Source: Pseudomonadota bacterium (GTDB lineage: Bacteria > Pseudomonadota > Gammaproteobacteria > Acidiferrobacterales > UBA6901). From it: a DNA stretch of 64,000 nucleotides. Shown piece by piece: positions 11,970-36,184 of the stretch. The number at the start of each line of letters is the position of its first letter. The stretch's first letter is position 1. Where the stretch lies: NCBI GenBank assembly GCA_021790335.1, contig JAJYEE010000002.1:4164-68163 (forward strand), written 5' to 3'. Below the pieces are notes generated by a model. That model was given only the letters and a program-made list of their open reading frames with translations. It was not told the origin of the DNA and ran no database searches. Made by a program: the position numbers and the translations under genes.

Positions 11970-14900
11970 TCACGCGCCGCTCACCCGAGTGGCCGGCTCT
12001 CGTGCCGGCGCAAGCGAGTCGAACAGCGTCTGCAGTGCCTGGGTCCGGTCCGCCGCCTGGGGAAACTCTCCGACGATTCGCAGGCGAGTGGGGCCATCCA
12101 GCCGGTAGGTCCGCGGGTTGGATTGCAAGAGACCGATGAGTGCGCCCGGATCGACGTTCGCAGTGGCGGAAAACTCGATGCGGGCGCCTTTGGGCCCGGC
12201 CTCGATCTTGCGGATGCCGAAAGCATTCGCGCGCATCTTGAGCTCCATGACTTTGAACAGCACTTTGGCCGCATCCGGCAGCAGCCCGAAGCGGTCTATC
12301 AACTCGGCCTGGAGGTCTGAAAGCTCCTGGCGGCCGGCAGTCCCGGCGATGCGCTTGTACAGGATCAGACGCATGTGCACGTCGGGAATATAGTCCTCGG
12401 GCAACAGCGCAGGGACGTGCAGATTGATCTCGGCACCGACCTGGGGGGGCGCTTCCAGGTCGACATTGTGTCCTGCCTTGATCGAAGCAACGGCGCGATT
12501 GAGCAGCTCCGAATACAGCGTGAAACCGACCTCGTCGATCTGGCCGCTTTGCGCCTCGCCGAGCAGTTCGCCGGCCCCGCGGATTTCCAGGTCGTGTGAA
12601 GCAAGGACAAAGCCGGCACCCAGGTCCTCGATCGAGGCGATGGCCTCAAGCCGCTTGAGAGCGTCGCCGGTGATCGTGCTGCGGGGTGGAATCAGCAGGT
12701 AGGCGTAAGCACGGTGATGGGAACGTCCGACGCGGCCCCGCAGCTGATGCAGCTGTGCAAGGCCGAACTTGTCCGCACGCTCTATGATGATGGTGTTGGC
12801 GCTCGGAATATCGATGCCGGTCTCGATGATCGTGCTGCACAGCAGCACATTGAAGCGCTGGTGGTAAAAATCCACCATGACGCGTTCCAGATCACGTTCC
12901 GGCATCTGGCCGTGTGCGACGCGGATTTCGGCCTCGGGCACCAGAGCCTCGAGGTGGTGCAGCGCCTTGTCCATGGTCTTCACGTCGTTGTGCAGAAAGT
13001 AAACCTGACCGCCGCGGCGGATCTCGCGCAGGCAGGCTTCTCGCAGAAGCGCATCATTGCGTTCCGACACGAAGGTCTTCACCGACAGGCGGGCCTCGGG
13101 TGCCGTCGCGATCATCGATATGTCGCGCAGCCCCGACATTGCCAGATTCAGGGTGCGGGGAACGGGCGTTGCGGTGAGGGTAAGTATGTCGACCTCACTG
13201 CGCAGTTTCTTCAGCCGTTCCTTCTGACGCACGCCGAAGCGATGCTCTTCATCGATGATCAGGAGTCCGAGCTGCTTGAAGCGGACATCGTCCTGTAGCA
13301 GCCGGTGTGTTCCGATCACAATGTCCACGTCCCCGGAAGCGAGTAGCGCGAGTGCCTTATCCTGCTCGGTCTTGGTGCGGAAGCGCGACAGAAGCTCGAT
13401 TCTTATCGGCGCCGCTGACTGAAGTCCGGCGCGGTCTGGCGCCACCGGTTTGGTCTGTGCCGGGTATTTTTTCACGTCCGCGAAGCGATCCGAAAAATTC
13501 TGGAAATGCTGCTGGGCGAGCAGCGTGGTCGGCACCAGCACGGCGACCTGGCGCAGGTCCTGGACCGCCAGGAAGGCGGCACGCATTGCGACTTCCGTCT
13601 TGCCAAAGCCGACGTCGCCGCAGATCAGGCGGTCCATCGGGCGGGCGGTTTCCATGTCCTGAATCGTTTCCTCGATCGCGCGGGCCTGGTCGGGGGTCTC
13701 TTCGAACGGAAAGGCCGCGGCGAATGCCGCATAGTGTTCGTCGTGCACCCGGAACGCGTGACCGGGTCGGCTCAGGCGCAGTGCCTGCACCTCGAGTAGC
13801 TCCACGGCGGCGTCGTGCGCCTTCTGCCGCGCGCGCTTCTTGGCCTTCTCCCAGGTATCGCCACCCAGCCTGTGCAGCGGTGCGTGCTCCGGGTCAGCGC
13901 CTGTATAGCGGCTGACGCGCTGCAGATCGGTCACGGGCGTGTACAGCTTGTCGCCGCCGGCGTACTCCAGCGCCAGGAATTCGGTCGGTCCGTCCCCGAC
14001 ATCCAGAGTCTGAAGGCCGAGGTAGCGTCCAACGCCGTGGTCTTCGTGGACTACCGGGTCGCCGAGGCGCAGTTCGGCCAGATTGCGGATGACTGCCTCC
14101 GGGTCGCGCGCGGCCTGGGCGCGACGCCGCCGCTGGGCGGCGCGCTCGCCATAGAGCTGGGCTTCGGTGATAACCGCCAAGTGCGGCGATTTGAGCAGCA
14201 GGCCTTTTTCGAGAATTGCGACCGTGATGCCGAGGGTGAGATCCGCAGACAAAAATGCCTGCCATCCCGCGCAGGTCTCGAGGTGAATTCCGTGATCCTC
14301 GAACAGGGTGCGCAGGACCTCACGTCGGCCGGCGGTCTCGGCCACCATGAGCAGACGGCCGCGAAAGCGGCGTATCCAGTCAAACAGCGCCGCGTGCGGA
14401 TCCTCGGCCCGGTGGTCGACCGGCAGGCGCGGCGGAATCTCGGTGGGGGCGGCCGCACCGGTCACGGCGAGCGGCGCATCCGCATTGCCAGCAGGCGTTG
14501 AGATGGCCTGAAGCAGGATGCAGGGACGCCGCCGCAGTTCCTCGTGAAGATGATCCGGGGCGAGAAACAGTTGCTCGGGAGGCAGCACCGGCCGTTCGGT
14601 ACCATGACGCAGCAGCGCATAACGTTCGTCGGCTTCCGAACGGAACTTCGCTGCGGCGGTTTCGACCCCTTCTTCGAGCAGACACAGGGTTGAAGACGGC
14701 AGATATTCGAACAGGCTTGTGGTCTGCTCGTAGAACAACGGCAGGTAATACTCGATGCCCGCCGGACTGAGCCCCTTGCTCAGATCACGATAGATCGATA
14801 CCTTCTGCGGGTCACCTTCAAAACGCGCACGGAATTCCTGGCGGAAGTGCTGGATCGCCGTCGGAGTCATCGGATATTCGCGCGCGGGCAGCAGCCGGAC

Positions 14901-15554
14901 TGCAGTAAGCCGTTCCCCGGACCGTTGGGTCTCGGGGTCGAAGCGGCGGATCGTATCGATCCGGTCGCCGAACAGATCGATGCGGTAGGGGCTGTCGCTG
15001 CCCATGGGAAAGATGTCGATCAGGCCGCCGCGCACAGCGTACTCTCCCGGCTCCATCACCTGGCTGACCGACTGGTAGGCGTTGTGCAGCAGCCGCGCAC
15101 GGAAGGTTTCCGGTTCCAGCCGCTCTCCCACGTCAAGCACCAGACTGTGTGACTGCACGTAATCGCGCGGTGGCAGGCGATGCATCAGGGTCGATGCGGA
15201 CAGCAGCACAACGCCCCGATTCAGACCGGGCAGCAGCGACAGCGTCAGCAGACGCTGGGAGATGATGTCGGGATGCGGCGAGAACGCGTCGTAGGGCAGG
15301 CTCTCCCAGTCCGGAAACGGAAGCACCGGGAGGGATTCCTCTGCATAGAAGCGGATCTCTTCCTCGAGGCGCTGCGCGGCACGCATGTCGCGTGTGACCA
15401 CGAGCAGCGGTCCGTCGAGGCGGCTGGCGCGCTCGGCGATGGCCAGCCCGAAAGCGCTTCCGTGCAGCTGCGTCCACGCGACGTGTTCTCCGGGGCGTTG
15501 CGGCAATGCGGGGCGCAGCAGCCCGCCGGCATCGTCGCCCTGGGTTTCGCTCAT
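11970..15554 (-). CDS. mfd: Transcription-repair coupling factor
   Basis: UvrB-like N-terminus, RID (GDPVVHEDHGVGRY), CGDVGFGKTEVA, IIDEEH, QLRGRVGR, TRG motif; likely start 15554. Confidence 0.97.
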   Translation of the reverse strand: MSETQGDDAGGLLRPALPQRPGEHVAWTQLHGSAFGLAIAERASRLDGPLLVVTRDMRAAQRLEEEIRFYAEESLPVLPFPDWESLPYDAFSPHPDIISQRLLTLSLLPGLNRGVVLLSASTLMHRLPPRDYVQSHSLVLDVGERLEPETFRARLLHNAYQSVSQVMEPGEYAVRGGLIDIFPMGSDSPYRIDLFGDRIDTIRRFDPETQRSGERLTAVRLLPAREYPMTPTAIQHFRQEFRARFEGDPQKVSIYRDLSKGLSPAGIEYYLPLFYEQTTSLFEYLPSSTLCLLEEGVETAAAKFRSEADERYALLRHGTERPVLPPEQLFLAPDHLHEELRRRPCILLQAISTPAGNADAPLAVTGAAAPTEIPPRLPVDHRAEDPHAALFDWIRRFRGRLLMVAETAGRREVLRTLFEDHGIHLETCAGWQAFLSADLTLGITVAILEKGLLLKSPHLAVITEAQLYGERAAQRRRRAQAARDPEAVIRNLAELRLGDPVVHEDHGVGRYLGLQTLDVGDGPTEFLALEYAGGDKLYTPVTDLQRVSRYTGADPEHAPLHRLGGDTWEKAKKRARQKAHDAAVELLEVQALRLSRPGHAFRVHDEHYAAFAAAFPFEETPDQARAIEETIQDMETARPMDRLICGDVGFGKTEVAMRAAFLAVQDLRQVAVLVPTTLLAQQHFQNFSDRFADVKKYPAQTKPVAPDRAGLQSAAPIRIELLSRFRTKTEQDKALALLASGDVDIVIGTHRLLQDDVRFKQLGLLIIDEEHRFGVRQKERLKKLRSEVDILTLTATPVPRTLNLAMSGLRDISMIATAPEARLSVKTFVSERNDALLREACLREIRRGGQVYFLHNDVKTMDKALHHLEALVPEAEIRVAHGQMPERDLERVMVDFYHQRFNVLLCSTIIETGIDIPSANTIIIERADKFGLAQLHQLRGRVGRSHHRAYAYLLIPPRSTITGDALKRLEAIASIEDLGAGFVLASHDLEIRGAGELLGEAQSGQIDEVGFTLYSELLNRAVASIKAGHNVDLEAPPQVGAEINLHVPALLPEDYIPDVHMRLILYKRIAGTAGRQELSDLQAELIDRFGLLPDAAKVLFKVMELKMRANAFGIRKIEAGPKGARIEFSATANVDPGALIGLLQSNPRTYRLDGPTRLRIVGEFPQAADRTQALQTLFDSLAPAREPATRVSGA

Positions 15555-16118
15555 TGCGTATTCGGTCCGGGATACACCATTGGGTTCATTCCGGCGCGCA
15601 TTGTACTCCATGGACGGCCCGCTGGAATGCCCATGCATCCGGAGCTCAGAGAGTTATACGTGATATTTGACAAACAGAAAATAATATTGCTCAATACGTT
15701 ACGTCGTCTTTCTAAAAAAAAACGCCGGCACGAACCGGTAACTGCCTGGGCCGGAAAGCTTTCAAGCCTGGATAGGCTGCGGATGTCGTCAGATTCGGTC
15801 CGGGGCGCAAAATCGTTAAGGAAAGAGGGCGTTGTACGGAGGCTCGGGGAGACGGGCCGGCGTTTCCGTCAGGCTGGAGTTTCGGTAGGAACTCGGTTCG
15901 TTGCCTGGTCCGGTTTTGAGAGCGGAAGGATCCGGGGAAAGGTTCCATATCGGCGGGGCGGTTGCACAGCAGGGTGCGCGTGACCAGGCCGGTGCAGATT
16001 TGGTAAGCCAGGGAAGACCGGCAGCGAAGAACATTAACCTGATAGCGCAATGGAGGAGTGGGAAGAGGGACGCGCTATCCCTCCCCGGCATGAAGACCGG
16101 GTCCCCTCGCGCAGACTG

Positions 16119-16634
16119 ATGAACCAGAATCCCCGCTTCAAGGTTGGCGACACGGTGTTCTACCCCGCTGCTGGCGTGGGTCTTATCGAGGCCGTCGAGG
16201 ATCTGTTCCTGACAGGGCGGCGCGAACGCTGTTTTGTGATTCGCATCCATGAGAGCAATGTGACTATCAAGGTTCCCCAGGCGAACATGGCGCGCAACGG
16301 CATCCGGCCGCTGTTGGCGAGAAGGGAGCTCAAGGATTTGTTCAAGATTTTGGCCGGCCGTTGCCAGCGCCGTGCGAGCGGTAATCTGCTCGAGCGCTGC
16401 CGGGAGCTGGGCCAGAAGGTGCAGGGTGGCTCGCCGGCCGATCTTGGCGAAGTTGTCCGGGACCTGACGCATTGGAAGTCCCAGACCGGATTGTCCTTCG
16501 ATGAGCTGAGGCTGCTCGAAACGGCCTGCAAGTACCTGTGCCAGGAGATTGCGGCGGTGGAAGGCATCTCGCCTGACGATGCCTATGACCGGATCCAGCA
16601 GCAAATCGGCCTTACCGCCGGTGCGGTGGCCTGA
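16119..16634 (+). CDS. carD: CarD/CdnL-family transcriptional regulator (divergent)
   Basis: FKVGDTVFYP..GVG.IE, IKVP...GIRPL, GEVVRDL, LSFDE..LLE.A..YL.QEIA; upstream of ispD-ispF. Confidence 0.85.
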   Translation: MNQNPRFKVGDTVFYPAAGVGLIEAVEDLFLTGRRERCFVIRIHESNVTIKVPQANMARNGIRPLLARRELKDLFKILAGRCQRRASGNLLERCRELGQKVQGGSPADLGEVVRDLTHWKSQTGLSFDELRLLETACKYLCQEIAAVEGISPDDAYDRIQQQIGLTAGAVA

Positions 16635-16691
16635 TAGCGCGCCGGGCGGCGCTGCGCATCGCTGATCGAACCCGATGGGGACAGATGTCCT

Positions 16692-17402
16692 ATGTTGAAC
16701 CGCGGCCTTTGGGCACTTGTTCCGGCCGCAGGCAGGGGCAGGCGCATGGGCGCCGGGTGTCCGAAGCAGTACCTGAAACTGCGGGACCGCACCGTGCTGC
16801 AGCATACGCTTGAGCGCCTGGATGGCTTCGCGCCATTGCGGGGCATCCTCGTCGGCATTGCATCCGATGATTGTTACTGGCCGACCCTCTCCGTACGGAT
16901 ACCGCGGCTGCTCGGCAGTTTTCCGGGTGGCGCCGAGCGCGCGCATACCGTCCTCAATGGCTTGGAGGTGCTTGCCGCCAGCGCTCAGGACCACGATTGG
17001 GTACTGGTGCATGACGCGGTGCGCCCCTGTGTTCGTCATGCGGACATGCACAGACTGATGGATGCGGTGGGCGATGATCCCGATGGAGGATTGTTGGGAT
17101 TGCCCCTGGCGGATACGGTAAAGCGCACGGATGACGAAGGTCGCGTCATGGCCACCGTCTCCCGTCACGGGCTGTGGCGGGCGCTGACACCGCAGATCTT
17201 TCCGATCGGGGTACTGCGAGGCGCATTGCGGCGCGCACTCGCCGACGGTGTCGAGGTGACCGACGAAGCGTCGGCGGTGGAGCATGCCGGCGGTAAACCG
17301 CGCATGGTTGCCGGGCACGCTGATAACATCAAGATCACCGTACCGGGAGATCTTGCGCTGGCCGAACTCTATCTCCAGAGGCAGGCAGCGGAAGCGGACT
17401 GA
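16692..17402 (+). CDS. ispD: 2-C-methyl-D-erythritol 4-phosphate cytidylyltransferase
   Basis: [41 protein letters not shown]. Confidence 0.96.
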
Positions 17403-17899
17403 TGCGTATCGGACATGGCTACGACGTCCACCCGCTGAAAGCGGGGCGTGACCTGATTCTTGGCGGAGTCAAAATTCCGCATCCCAAGGGCCTGGACGGC
17501 CACTCCGATGCCGACGTGCTGATCCATGCGATCTGCGACGCCTGCCTGGGTGCTGCCGCGCTTGGCGACATAGGCCATCATTTTCCGGATTCCGACCCAC
17601 GCTATCGCGGCATCGACAGCCGCCGACTGCTGCGCAAGGTATGTGCGGTACTCAAACAGCACGGGTGGCGTGTGGGGAACCTGGACAGCACGGTGGTAGC
17701 CCAGGCGCCCAGGCTGGCGCCGCATATCTCGGGTATGCGCGAAAACATCGCGATGGATCTGGAAATCGGTACCGAACAGGTCAACGTCAAGGCGACCACC
17801 ACCGAGATGATGGGGTTCGCGGGTCGCGAGGAAGGCATCGCAGCGCACGCCGTCGTGTTGCTTCTTTCCACCGCCCCGGAACCGAAAGCAAGGGCCTGA
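17402..17899 (+). CDS. ispF: 2-C-methyl-D-erythritol 2,4-cyclodiphosphate synthase
   Basis: [26 protein letters not shown]. Confidence 0.97.
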
Positions 17900-18369
17900 A
17901 CCCGCTCGCCGCGACGGAATTGCCAGGCAGGTGAGGACGGGTGTGAGTTTCTAAATCGCCGTCGAGTGCGGTCCGCGCCGATCTGGCGTTTAGCAGGCAC
18001 GTCACCCCATGGATAAGCTGGCGGCGCTGGAACGACCCCAGGGTGTTCATGCTCCGGAGGAACCGATACGGACAGCGTGCATCCGGAAGCGTACCTTCAG
18101 CGCGGCGCTGTCATCTCACGCTCACGGCCTACGACGCGTCTTATCCTTAATCCTTGGCCGGCATGACGCACCGGCCAGCCGCGGGTAACTCTAGACGGGC
18201 CGTTGCAGGCGGCCACGAAGCAGGCGGGGAATGGAGCAGTTTTGCCGCGTGCGGCAATGACAGCCGGTCCTGTCCGCACGCAGGCAGTCTGTCTGGCAAC
18301 ATCACTACGTTCCGCGGCAAGCCCAGCGCCACGAATGGCGTCAACATTTTGTGGGTGGGCGCCGACTGG

Positions 18370-36097: not shown

Positions 36098-36184
36098 TGG
36101 TACCGAGGAGAGGACTTGAACCTCCACGGGGTTACCCCCACTAGCACCTGAAGCTAGCGCGTCTACCAGTTCCGCCACCTCGGC
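36098..36184 (-). tRNA. tRNA-Leu (anticodon CAG)
   Basis: GCCGAGGTGGCGGAACTGGTAGACGCGCTAGCTTCAGGTGCTAG...GGTTCAAGTCC..TCGGTACCA; long variable arm; encoded CCA. Confidence 0.97.

Follow-up and report, generated by a model that had tools for sequence, protein, structure and literature searches.

Leucine in place of the wedge tryptophan in a CarD/CdnL homolog from the gammaproteobacterial order Acidiferrobacterales

CarD is a model of the factors that bind RNA polymerase (RNAP), not DNA, and tune promoter opening, and most members of the family carry within the C-terminal domain a tryptophan that acts as a wedge. Can this residue be given up while the gene is kept, and what is a CarD protein doing in a gammaproteobacterium? 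Both questions are raised by a 64,000-nucleotide stretch of contig JAJYEE010000002.1 (assembly GCA_021790335.1, positions 4,164 to 68,163; hereafter, the window), in which a carD/cdnL homolog with leucine at the wedge position lies between a divergent mfd gene and the isoprenoid genes ispD and ispF. The host is a sulfur-oxidizing member of the Acidiferrobacterales, probably from mine drainage, and the NCBI taxonomy places this order within the Gammaproteobacteria. Published accounts of CarD list Actinobacteria, Firmicutes, Deinococcus-Thermus, Alpha- and Deltaproteobacteria, and some other phyla and do not name the Gammaproteobacteria (PMC8407463). Judging from comparative sequence analysis, the gene is probably inherited vertically and its product functional, belonging to a CarD/CdnL clade specific to the Acidiferrobacterales and bound to the polymerase, with its contact to the transcription fork weakened or remodeled.

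A CarD homolog with leucine at the wedge position

The 171-residue protein matched both Pfam domains of the family above the gathering cutoffs, namely, CarD_C (PF21095; 1.2e-16, 60.9 bits against a cutoff of 23.1) and the RNAP-interacting domain (RID) CarD_TRCF_RID (PF02559; 9.7e-9, 35.6 bits against a cutoff of 23). The RID occupies approximately residues 7 to 65 and is followed by a linker and a helical C-terminal domain at approximately residues 68 to 163. An HMGA-type tail (acidic region plus AT-hook) is absent, as the protein ends at residue 171, directly after CarD_C, with no added domain. Among solved structures, phmmer retrieved Myxococcus xanthus CdnL (2lwj, 1.3e-20) and Mycobacterium tuberculosis CarD (4kbm, 1.4e-18). 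The AlphaFold2 model, for which a 19-sequence alignment served as input, had a mean predicted local distance difference test (pLDDT) score of 86.5 and consisted of a β-rich N-terminal domain, with strands at residues 12 to 53, and a C-terminal domain of five helices. Its top Foldseek matches were all CarD/CdnL proteins with template modeling (TM) scores of 0.77 to 0.87 (including 4l5g, 6edt, 8hvr, and 4xax), among them CarD bound in mycobacterial and Streptomyces initiation complexes or open complexes. Both domain matches, the fold, and the position of the host order bear out the original prediction of a CarD/CdnL homolog in a gammaproteobacterium.

In the phmmer alignments to 2lwj and 4kbm, Leu90 stands opposite the wedge Trp (N-L against N-W), so that the replacement read from the DNA alone proved correct, as did its numbering from the ATG at 16119. 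Residues 88 to 94 are GNLLERC, in which Glu-Arg-Cys takes the place of the Arg-Arg-Tyr that follows the wedge position, and Leu90 lies in the first turn of helix 90-103 of the model. Of the canonical basic-hydrophobic patch, R93 and F127 are kept and the rest is changed. The wedge Trp, which is W85 in M. tuberculosis, W86 in Thermus thermophilus, and W90 in Caulobacter, stands at the head of the first C-terminal helix. In the wider family, 136 of the 143 full-length representatives have it; natural Trp-less forms are rare, not unique. The reading of residues 15 to 19 as YPAAG was also correct, but YPxHG, with which it had been contrasted, does not characterize the family as a whole: the sequence is YPGQG in M. 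xanthus CdnL, YPAQG or YPSQG in other representatives, and FYP[SA]AG throughout the Acidiferrobacterales clade. The features of the locus are as follows.

11970 to 15638, minus strand: mfd, divergent from carD; longest open reading frame (ORF), 1,222 amino acids (aa); its own RID at residues 524 to 578
15639 to 16118: spacer between mfd and carD, 480 bp
15667 to 15702, plus strand: AT-rich conserved block of 36 nucleotides (nt), containing TTGACA and a TATTG-N2-CAATA palindrome
16119 to 16634, plus strand: carD/cdnL homolog, 171 aa, beginning MNQNPRFKVGD
16386 to 16388, plus strand: codon 90 of carD, CTG (Leu), at the wedge-Trp position by the alignments and the codon table
16692 to 17402, plus strand: ispD, 2-C-methyl-D-erythritol 4-phosphate cytidylyltransferase, 236 aa; Pfam IspD, 8.9e-67; TIGR00453, 223.7 bits, above cutoff
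17402 to 17899, plus strand: ispF, 2-C-methyl-D-erythritol 2,4-cyclodiphosphate synthase, 165 aa; Pfam YgbB, 9.4e-71; TIGR00151, 227 bits, above cutoff

In CdnL homologs, mutation of the RID residues Val39, Arg52, and Pro54 (Caulobacter numbering) abolishes binding to the β subunit (PMC5324124). The RID contact residues are present by alignment in the Acidiferrobacterales proteins: V40 and P53 do not vary, and the position of K51 holds Lys or Arg in all 121 clade sequences. The host RpoB retains the DIKEQE segment of the β1 lobe; its N terminus has the Mfd/CarD docking segment DIKEQEVYMGEIP, known from Escherichia coli. Because both the RID contact residues and this β1 segment are kept, we infer that the protein binds RNAP. 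A complex prediction with host RpoB residues 11 to 500 and CarD (score, 0.27; mark, 0.32) counts neither for nor against binding.

Among solved structures, the best match is M. xanthus CdnL (2LWJ; 153 residues aligned, ∼30% identity), with which the host protein shares two domains, a similar size, the lack of an HMGA tail, F127 of the hydrophobic patch, and the second arginine in the RR pair. The host protein differs from it in having Leu90 for Trp, ERC for RRY, and Leu130 with an adjoining Arg131 where the essential Arg lies three residues beyond the Phe, and the host clade has C38 and C94 in place of aromatic residues. CarD of M. tuberculosis and Thermus thermophilus (4KBM, 6EDT, 4XLR, and 4XAX; TM scores within the range given above) shares the RID Val and Pro, whereas the equivalent of W85/W86 is Leu in the host, the salt-bridge position R25 of M. 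tuberculosis is taken by Leu or Ile across the clade, the host equivalents of K125 and R87 are nonbasic, and the host, a gammaproteobacterium, has DksA as well. CdnL/CarD of the alphaproteobacteria Caulobacter crescentus and Rhodobacter sphaeroides comes from the same phylum, coexists with DksA, and is near-universal in its own taxon, but the alpha-type proteins carry M-W-S-R-R-A-Q-E-Y and form a separate clade in which the Acidiferrobacterales clade is not nested; alphaproteobacterial genomes have a fused ispDF, and the two alpha-type carD loci examined (L127 and L128) do not adjoin ispD. The RID of Mfd, whose gene lies on the opposite strand across the 480-bp spacer, belongs to the same Pfam family (PF02559) as that of CarD and presumably docks at the same β1 site.

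Two side observations concern the same proteins. C38 (16230 to 16232) occurs in 120 and C94 (16398 to 16400) in 101 of the 121 CarD sequences of the order, at the positions where M. tuberculosis CarD has the aromatics Y34 and Y89; the host CarD has five cysteines, and a redox or metal role for them is conceivable. In addition, a canonical dksA (172 bits, above cutoff) lies on contig C109 (4450 to 4776) of the host genome and coexists with carD, and a second DksA/TraR-like gene (51 bits, below cutoff) lies on contig C100 (15388 to 15726).

Distribution and history of the gene and its wedge residue

Judging by the genomes sampled, CarD is a property of the whole order. CarD_C exceeded the cutoff in 92 of 101 genomes of the Acidiferrobacterales, including all 54 high-quality ones, and in 0 of ∼395 genomes from other orders of the class (drawn from an even 400-genome class sample), in line with the original background statement that CarD is largely absent from gammaproteobacterial lineages, to which this order is the exception. 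Among 301 genomes sampled across the phylum, it was found in 96 genomes of other classes and in 0 genomes of the same class. The other-class proteins carry M-W-S-R-R-A-Q-E-Y and are taken to be of the alphaproteobacterial type, based on the literature and a Caulobacter control. A literature search found no paper linking Acidiferrobacter with CarD, and as far as our searches show, neither this order-level distribution nor a natural loss of the wedge has been reported.

Related loci were collected by a pattern and tblastn scan with one genome per prokaryote species, which returned 76 loci; their titles name Acidiferrobacterales, Acidiferrobacteraceae, Sulfurifustaceae, Sulfuricaulis, Sulfurifustis, "Candidatus Muproteobacteria," and unclassified Gammaproteobacteria. 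The arrangement in the window, carD-ispD-ispF head-to-head with mfd, was confirmed by the ORFs, Pfam, and the NCBIfam equivalogs, and it recurs in the related loci wherever the contig reaches, with one exception, in which ispDF lie 4 kb further on. The divergent mfd is kept in essentially all 88 related loci with sufficient contig, and gene and synteny together span nine families of the order. As a side observation, metagenome-assembled genomes (MAGs) labeled Nitrospiraceae, Methylomirabilis, Thermoleophilia, Nitrospira, and Burkholderiales (L026, L052, L053, L059, and L050/L071/L073) share this Acidiferrobacterales-type locus and are probably mislabeled bins or contaminating contigs.

The clade is isolated. 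In an exhaustive search of 1.84 billion representatives, made without a profile, it collapsed into one or two clusters, and the next-best matches beyond it dropped from 310 bits to 129 bits or less, at 30 to 38% identity. In a family tree of 157 sequences, the CarD proteins of the order formed one fully supported clade with a stem of 0.69 substitutions per site, which fell outside the alpha-type clade, its exact sister not being settled in that tree. The CarD tree tracks the Mfd tree, and the GC content of the window is even at ∼62% and flat through the carD locus. The IspF search returned a smooth gradient of metagenomic matches, and a comparison with the genome samples was used instead: host IspF is 52 to 66% identical to IspF of the same class and 43 to 51% identical to the fused IspDF of CarD-bearing other classes, so that the isoprenoid genes look native. 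In this connection, IspF of the alpha-type CarD-bearing genomes lies inside open frames of 390 to 450 aa, which represent fused IspDF, and the host and its class have separate genes. Linkage of carD to ispD was also seen in at least one unrelated metagenomic lineage (L129), and the order carD-ispD-ispF is that of M. tuberculosis as well (Rv3583c-Rv3581c). Since gene and synteny are conserved throughout the order, any acquisition must be ancient. Of the proposal that CarD was retained or horizontally acquired, a recent transfer or single-genome oddity can therefore be set aside; the gene may have been taken up when the order arose or earlier, or it may have been kept here while the rest of the class lost it.

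Loss of the Trp is confined to parts of the order. The wedge column of the 121 fetched loci, which include some genomes fetched twice, contained W in 94, L in 16, Q in 6, P in 2, and I in 2 sequences, and most CarD proteins of the order keep the Trp in the motif GNW[TA]ERC. The absence originally noted thus holds for the host's family and one separate lineage and not for the order. When a tree of Mfd, encoded next to carD, was taken as a proxy for the species phylogeny, the L, Q, and P sequences formed one clade (support, 99) corresponding to the host's family, with the Gln and Pro variants in a sister genus; the Ile form goes back to an independent loss in a different family, and the Trp is still present in one genus assigned to the host family. 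The Trp codon is always TGG, Leu is encoded once by TTG and otherwise by CTN, Gln by CAA or CAG, and Pro by CCC, which is compatible with a single mutational path. On these alignments and trees, the ancestral state of the clade is reconstructed as Trp, in G-N-W-[T/A]-E-R-C, with one loss in the host's family (from TGG to Leu and then to Gln or Pro) and one elsewhere (Ile). About ten other positions, including 32, 57, 81, 86, 98, 130, 131, 154, and 162, switch together with residue 90 in the Leu and Gln/Pro groups. Arg131 was gained in the Trp-less clade, and the Leu group has lost several basic residues of the C-terminal domain (Lys plus Arg, 10.0 versus 12.3).

Constraint and possible modes of action

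The Trp-less carD is under strong purifying selection. Within the host genus, its ratio of nonsynonymous to synonymous substitution rates (dN/dS) was 0.04 to 0.09, compared with 0.055 to 0.063 for ispF and 0.09 to 0.20 for ispD of the same genomes; for the Trp-bearing Sulfuricaulis-type carD, the ratio was 0.014 to 0.05. The reading frame was intact in all fetched orthologs, and residues 110 to 116 (GEVVRDL), W119, K120, and residues 125 to 129 (LSF[DE]E) are invariant or nearly so in the Trp-less clade. In two mine-drainage studies, contigs from RNA libraries span the leader and carD of a relative that is ∼95% identical, which is consistent with transcription of carD. Their starts, at 15837 and 15855, with extension into carD, weakly hint at a long 5′ leader; such contigs cannot prove transcription or a leader, their depths cannot rank genes, and the gaps over parts of mfd, ispD, and ispF (runs X11 and X13) are not interpretable.

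How might such a protein act? In the mechanism that we propose, the Tudor-like N-terminal RID would dock on the RNAP β1 lobe, at the same site as the RID of the neighboring Mfd, and would thereby bring the helical C-terminal domain to the transcription bubble at its upstream fork. In the host's family, the wedge Trp has changed to Leu through TGG, TTG, and CTG and later to Gln or Pro in the sister genus. CarD would still sit on RNAP at promoters, the fork being held by a smaller or different contact consisting of the Leu wedge and the gained Arg131, and the open complex may be stabilized more weakly or tuned differently. The data above establish the fold, the family to which the protein belongs, its distribution, synteny, and purifying selection, and the history of residue 90; RNAP binding, promoter action, and the direction of any functional change are inferred. 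The "altered promoter action" put forward at the outset is reasonable, with indirect support from accelerated but constrained evolution together with the coordinated changes in the C-terminal domain.

Several observations weigh against this proposal. The acceleration is a descriptive comparison of related, non-independent pairs, in which CarD diverges 1.5 to 2 times more between Trp-less than between Trp-bearing genomes at equal Mfd divergence. The C-terminal net charge of the Leu group is −2.6, versus ∼0, which argues for less DNA contact and not for a substitute wedge, and the Gln variants of the sister genus would make poor wedges. Throughout the clade, Glu92 replaces the first Arg of W-x-R-R, and Cys94 replaces the Tyr. 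The position of Arg130 of Caulobacter CdnL, an Arg whose equivalent is conserved in the four homologs studied (PMC5324124), is Ser or Ala in the Trp-bearing members and Leu130 in the host. Because the patch departs from the canon throughout the clade, the canonical DNA contact may not apply even to Trp-bearing members. As further background, the Trp-related defect in Caulobacter is mild and cold sensitive (PMC5324124).

The main rival explanation, which we consider rather doubtful, is one in which the fork contact has been given up in the host's family and CarD acts through its RID alone, by occupying β1 against Mfd or as a polymerase-bound adaptor, the conserved divergent pair of mfd and carD reflecting interplay of their products. 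It is favored by the facts that Mfd and CarD are encoded by the sole RID genes of the genome and are divergent neighbors order-wide, that the Trp is lost and the Leu group has a C-terminal domain with a net negative charge and fewer Lys and Arg residues, and that the sister genus, with Gln or Pro in place of the wedge, suggests that the side chain no longer matters; moreover, Caulobacter RNAP-binding mutants stay functional at 30°C (PMC5324124), so that the roles of CdnL are plastic. Against it, the C-terminal domain is strongly conserved in the Trp-less clade, at the low dN/dS given above, whereas a functionless domain would decay; the mfd-carD adjacency is not explained by the Trp loss either, because it predates that loss. 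A broader and more speculative version, to which we give little credence, is that the order has a distinct CarD lineage with an optional Trp wedge and that the protein of the host's family can do without both the Trp and the canonical basic patch, perhaps tuning promoter opening through a Leu/Arg131 surface or acting mainly by β1 occupancy against Mfd, with C38 and C94 possibly adding redox control in sulfur and iron oxidizers. Were this true, the host-family CarD would be a natural separation-of-function variant.

Decay and import fare worse than the proposal of a functional, vertically inherited CarD with a changed fork contact. A gene under relaxed constraint and en route to loss, with the Trp loss as the first step in a lineage that has ceased to need CarD as other Gammaproteobacteria have, would accord with the faster divergence relative to Mfd and with the variation of residue 90 among L, Q, and P. 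Frames are intact in every fetched ortholog, however, dN/dS equals that of ispF and lies below that of ispD, many invariant positions persist, and RNA-library contigs cover the gene, which makes decay very improbable. Even less can be said for recent horizontal import of a carD-ispD-ispF block of the actinobacterial or myxobacterial type, which draws on the carD-ispD linkage in unrelated organisms (L129) and on the failure to find CarD elsewhere in the sampled class; the flat GC content, the gene and synteny shared by nine families, the agreement of the CarD and Mfd trees, the identity of at most 38% to outside CarD with a long stem of the clade's own, and an IspF closer to the same class all speak against it, and we regard it as extremely unlikely.

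The interest of the case is that a CarD clade, isolated and universal within one order of the Gammaproteobacteria, exists there beside DksA, and that in part of this clade the wedge Trp has been removed naturally while the gene has stayed under strong selection. Orthologs with Trp, Leu, Gln, Pro, and Ile in similar backgrounds form a ready comparison set for asking about the contribution of the wedge and the role of CarD in its absence, and some of them come from cultured organisms, judging by name (Sulfuricaulis, Sulfurifustis, and Acidiferrobacter). The practical importance is modest, in that these findings refine the distribution of CarD and offer a natural separation-of-function allele, not a new mechanism.

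Gene calls, upstream region, and neighboring genes

A longer ORF of 194 aa, starting at 16050, was considered as carD and rejected as the gene because a 1-nt indel breaks the frame of the extension in a relative that is 92% identical (L016); moreover, the extension diverges much faster than the core, and relatives outside the genus start at residue 1 of the 171-aa form. A recent origin of the CarD RID by duplication from neighboring Mfd was also considered and rejected, as the two RIDs gave just a weak local match of 15 residues with 6 identities (E value, 0.037). The host genome (97.6% complete, 3.08-Mb assembly) contains a single CarD_C gene, and mfd and carD are its only RID genes. Mfd exceeded the NCBIfam cutoffs of both PRK10689 (1,392 bits; cutoff, 1,329) and TIGR00580 (1,014 bits), and its Pfam set is complete (TRCF, UvrB_inter, DEAD, Helicase_C, MFD_D3, and CarD_TRCF_RID). 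The stop of ispD and the start of ispF share 1 nt.

The spacer between mfd and carD measures ∼120 to 290 bp in most of the order, and the host genus has ∼380 nt extra (15730 to 16118). The 36-nt block is almost invariant in the host genus and recognizable in two other genera, where it lies 70 to 72 nt upstream of carD, compared with ∼450 nt in the host; in a fuzzy search, it was found only in Leu-type lineages (L001 and L014 to L023). It is possibly an operator or promoter element, and the regulatory region seems to have been remodeled in the same lineage that lost the Trp. A sigma-70 consensus scan of 15500 to 18300 returned no promoter, including in this block. An alignment of six genus members and L019 revealed a conserved leader at ∼16040 to 16095 with the short inverted repeats ATAGCGC...GCGCTAT and GAGGGA...TCCCTC, the consensus fold of which had modest structure on either strand and hardly any covariation. 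Rfam searches over the whole window returned a tRNA at 36101 to 36184 alone and nothing in the carD region. A terminator-like hairpin with a T run occupies 15725 to 15738 of the minus strand, shortly ahead of the region where mfd starts, with no obvious gene upstream on that strand.

Elsewhere in the host genome, eno and ftsB are adjacent (L137, contig C49, 30749 to 33985), as in other Gammaproteobacteria, and ispD does not follow ftsB; a convergent gene for a YgfZ-like (folate-binding) protein stands there, so that the usual eno-ftsB-ispD-ispF block is split in the host lineage. In several MAG loci (L019/L096, L024/L123, L067, and L070), the tblastn alignment with Mfd is interrupted by an in-frame stop, for which either an assembly error or a real lesion is possible. 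DNA runs with a small share (X4 to X15) were left out of account as evidence of habitat; the DNA of the window is almost fully present in mine-drainage metagenomes, a possible source.

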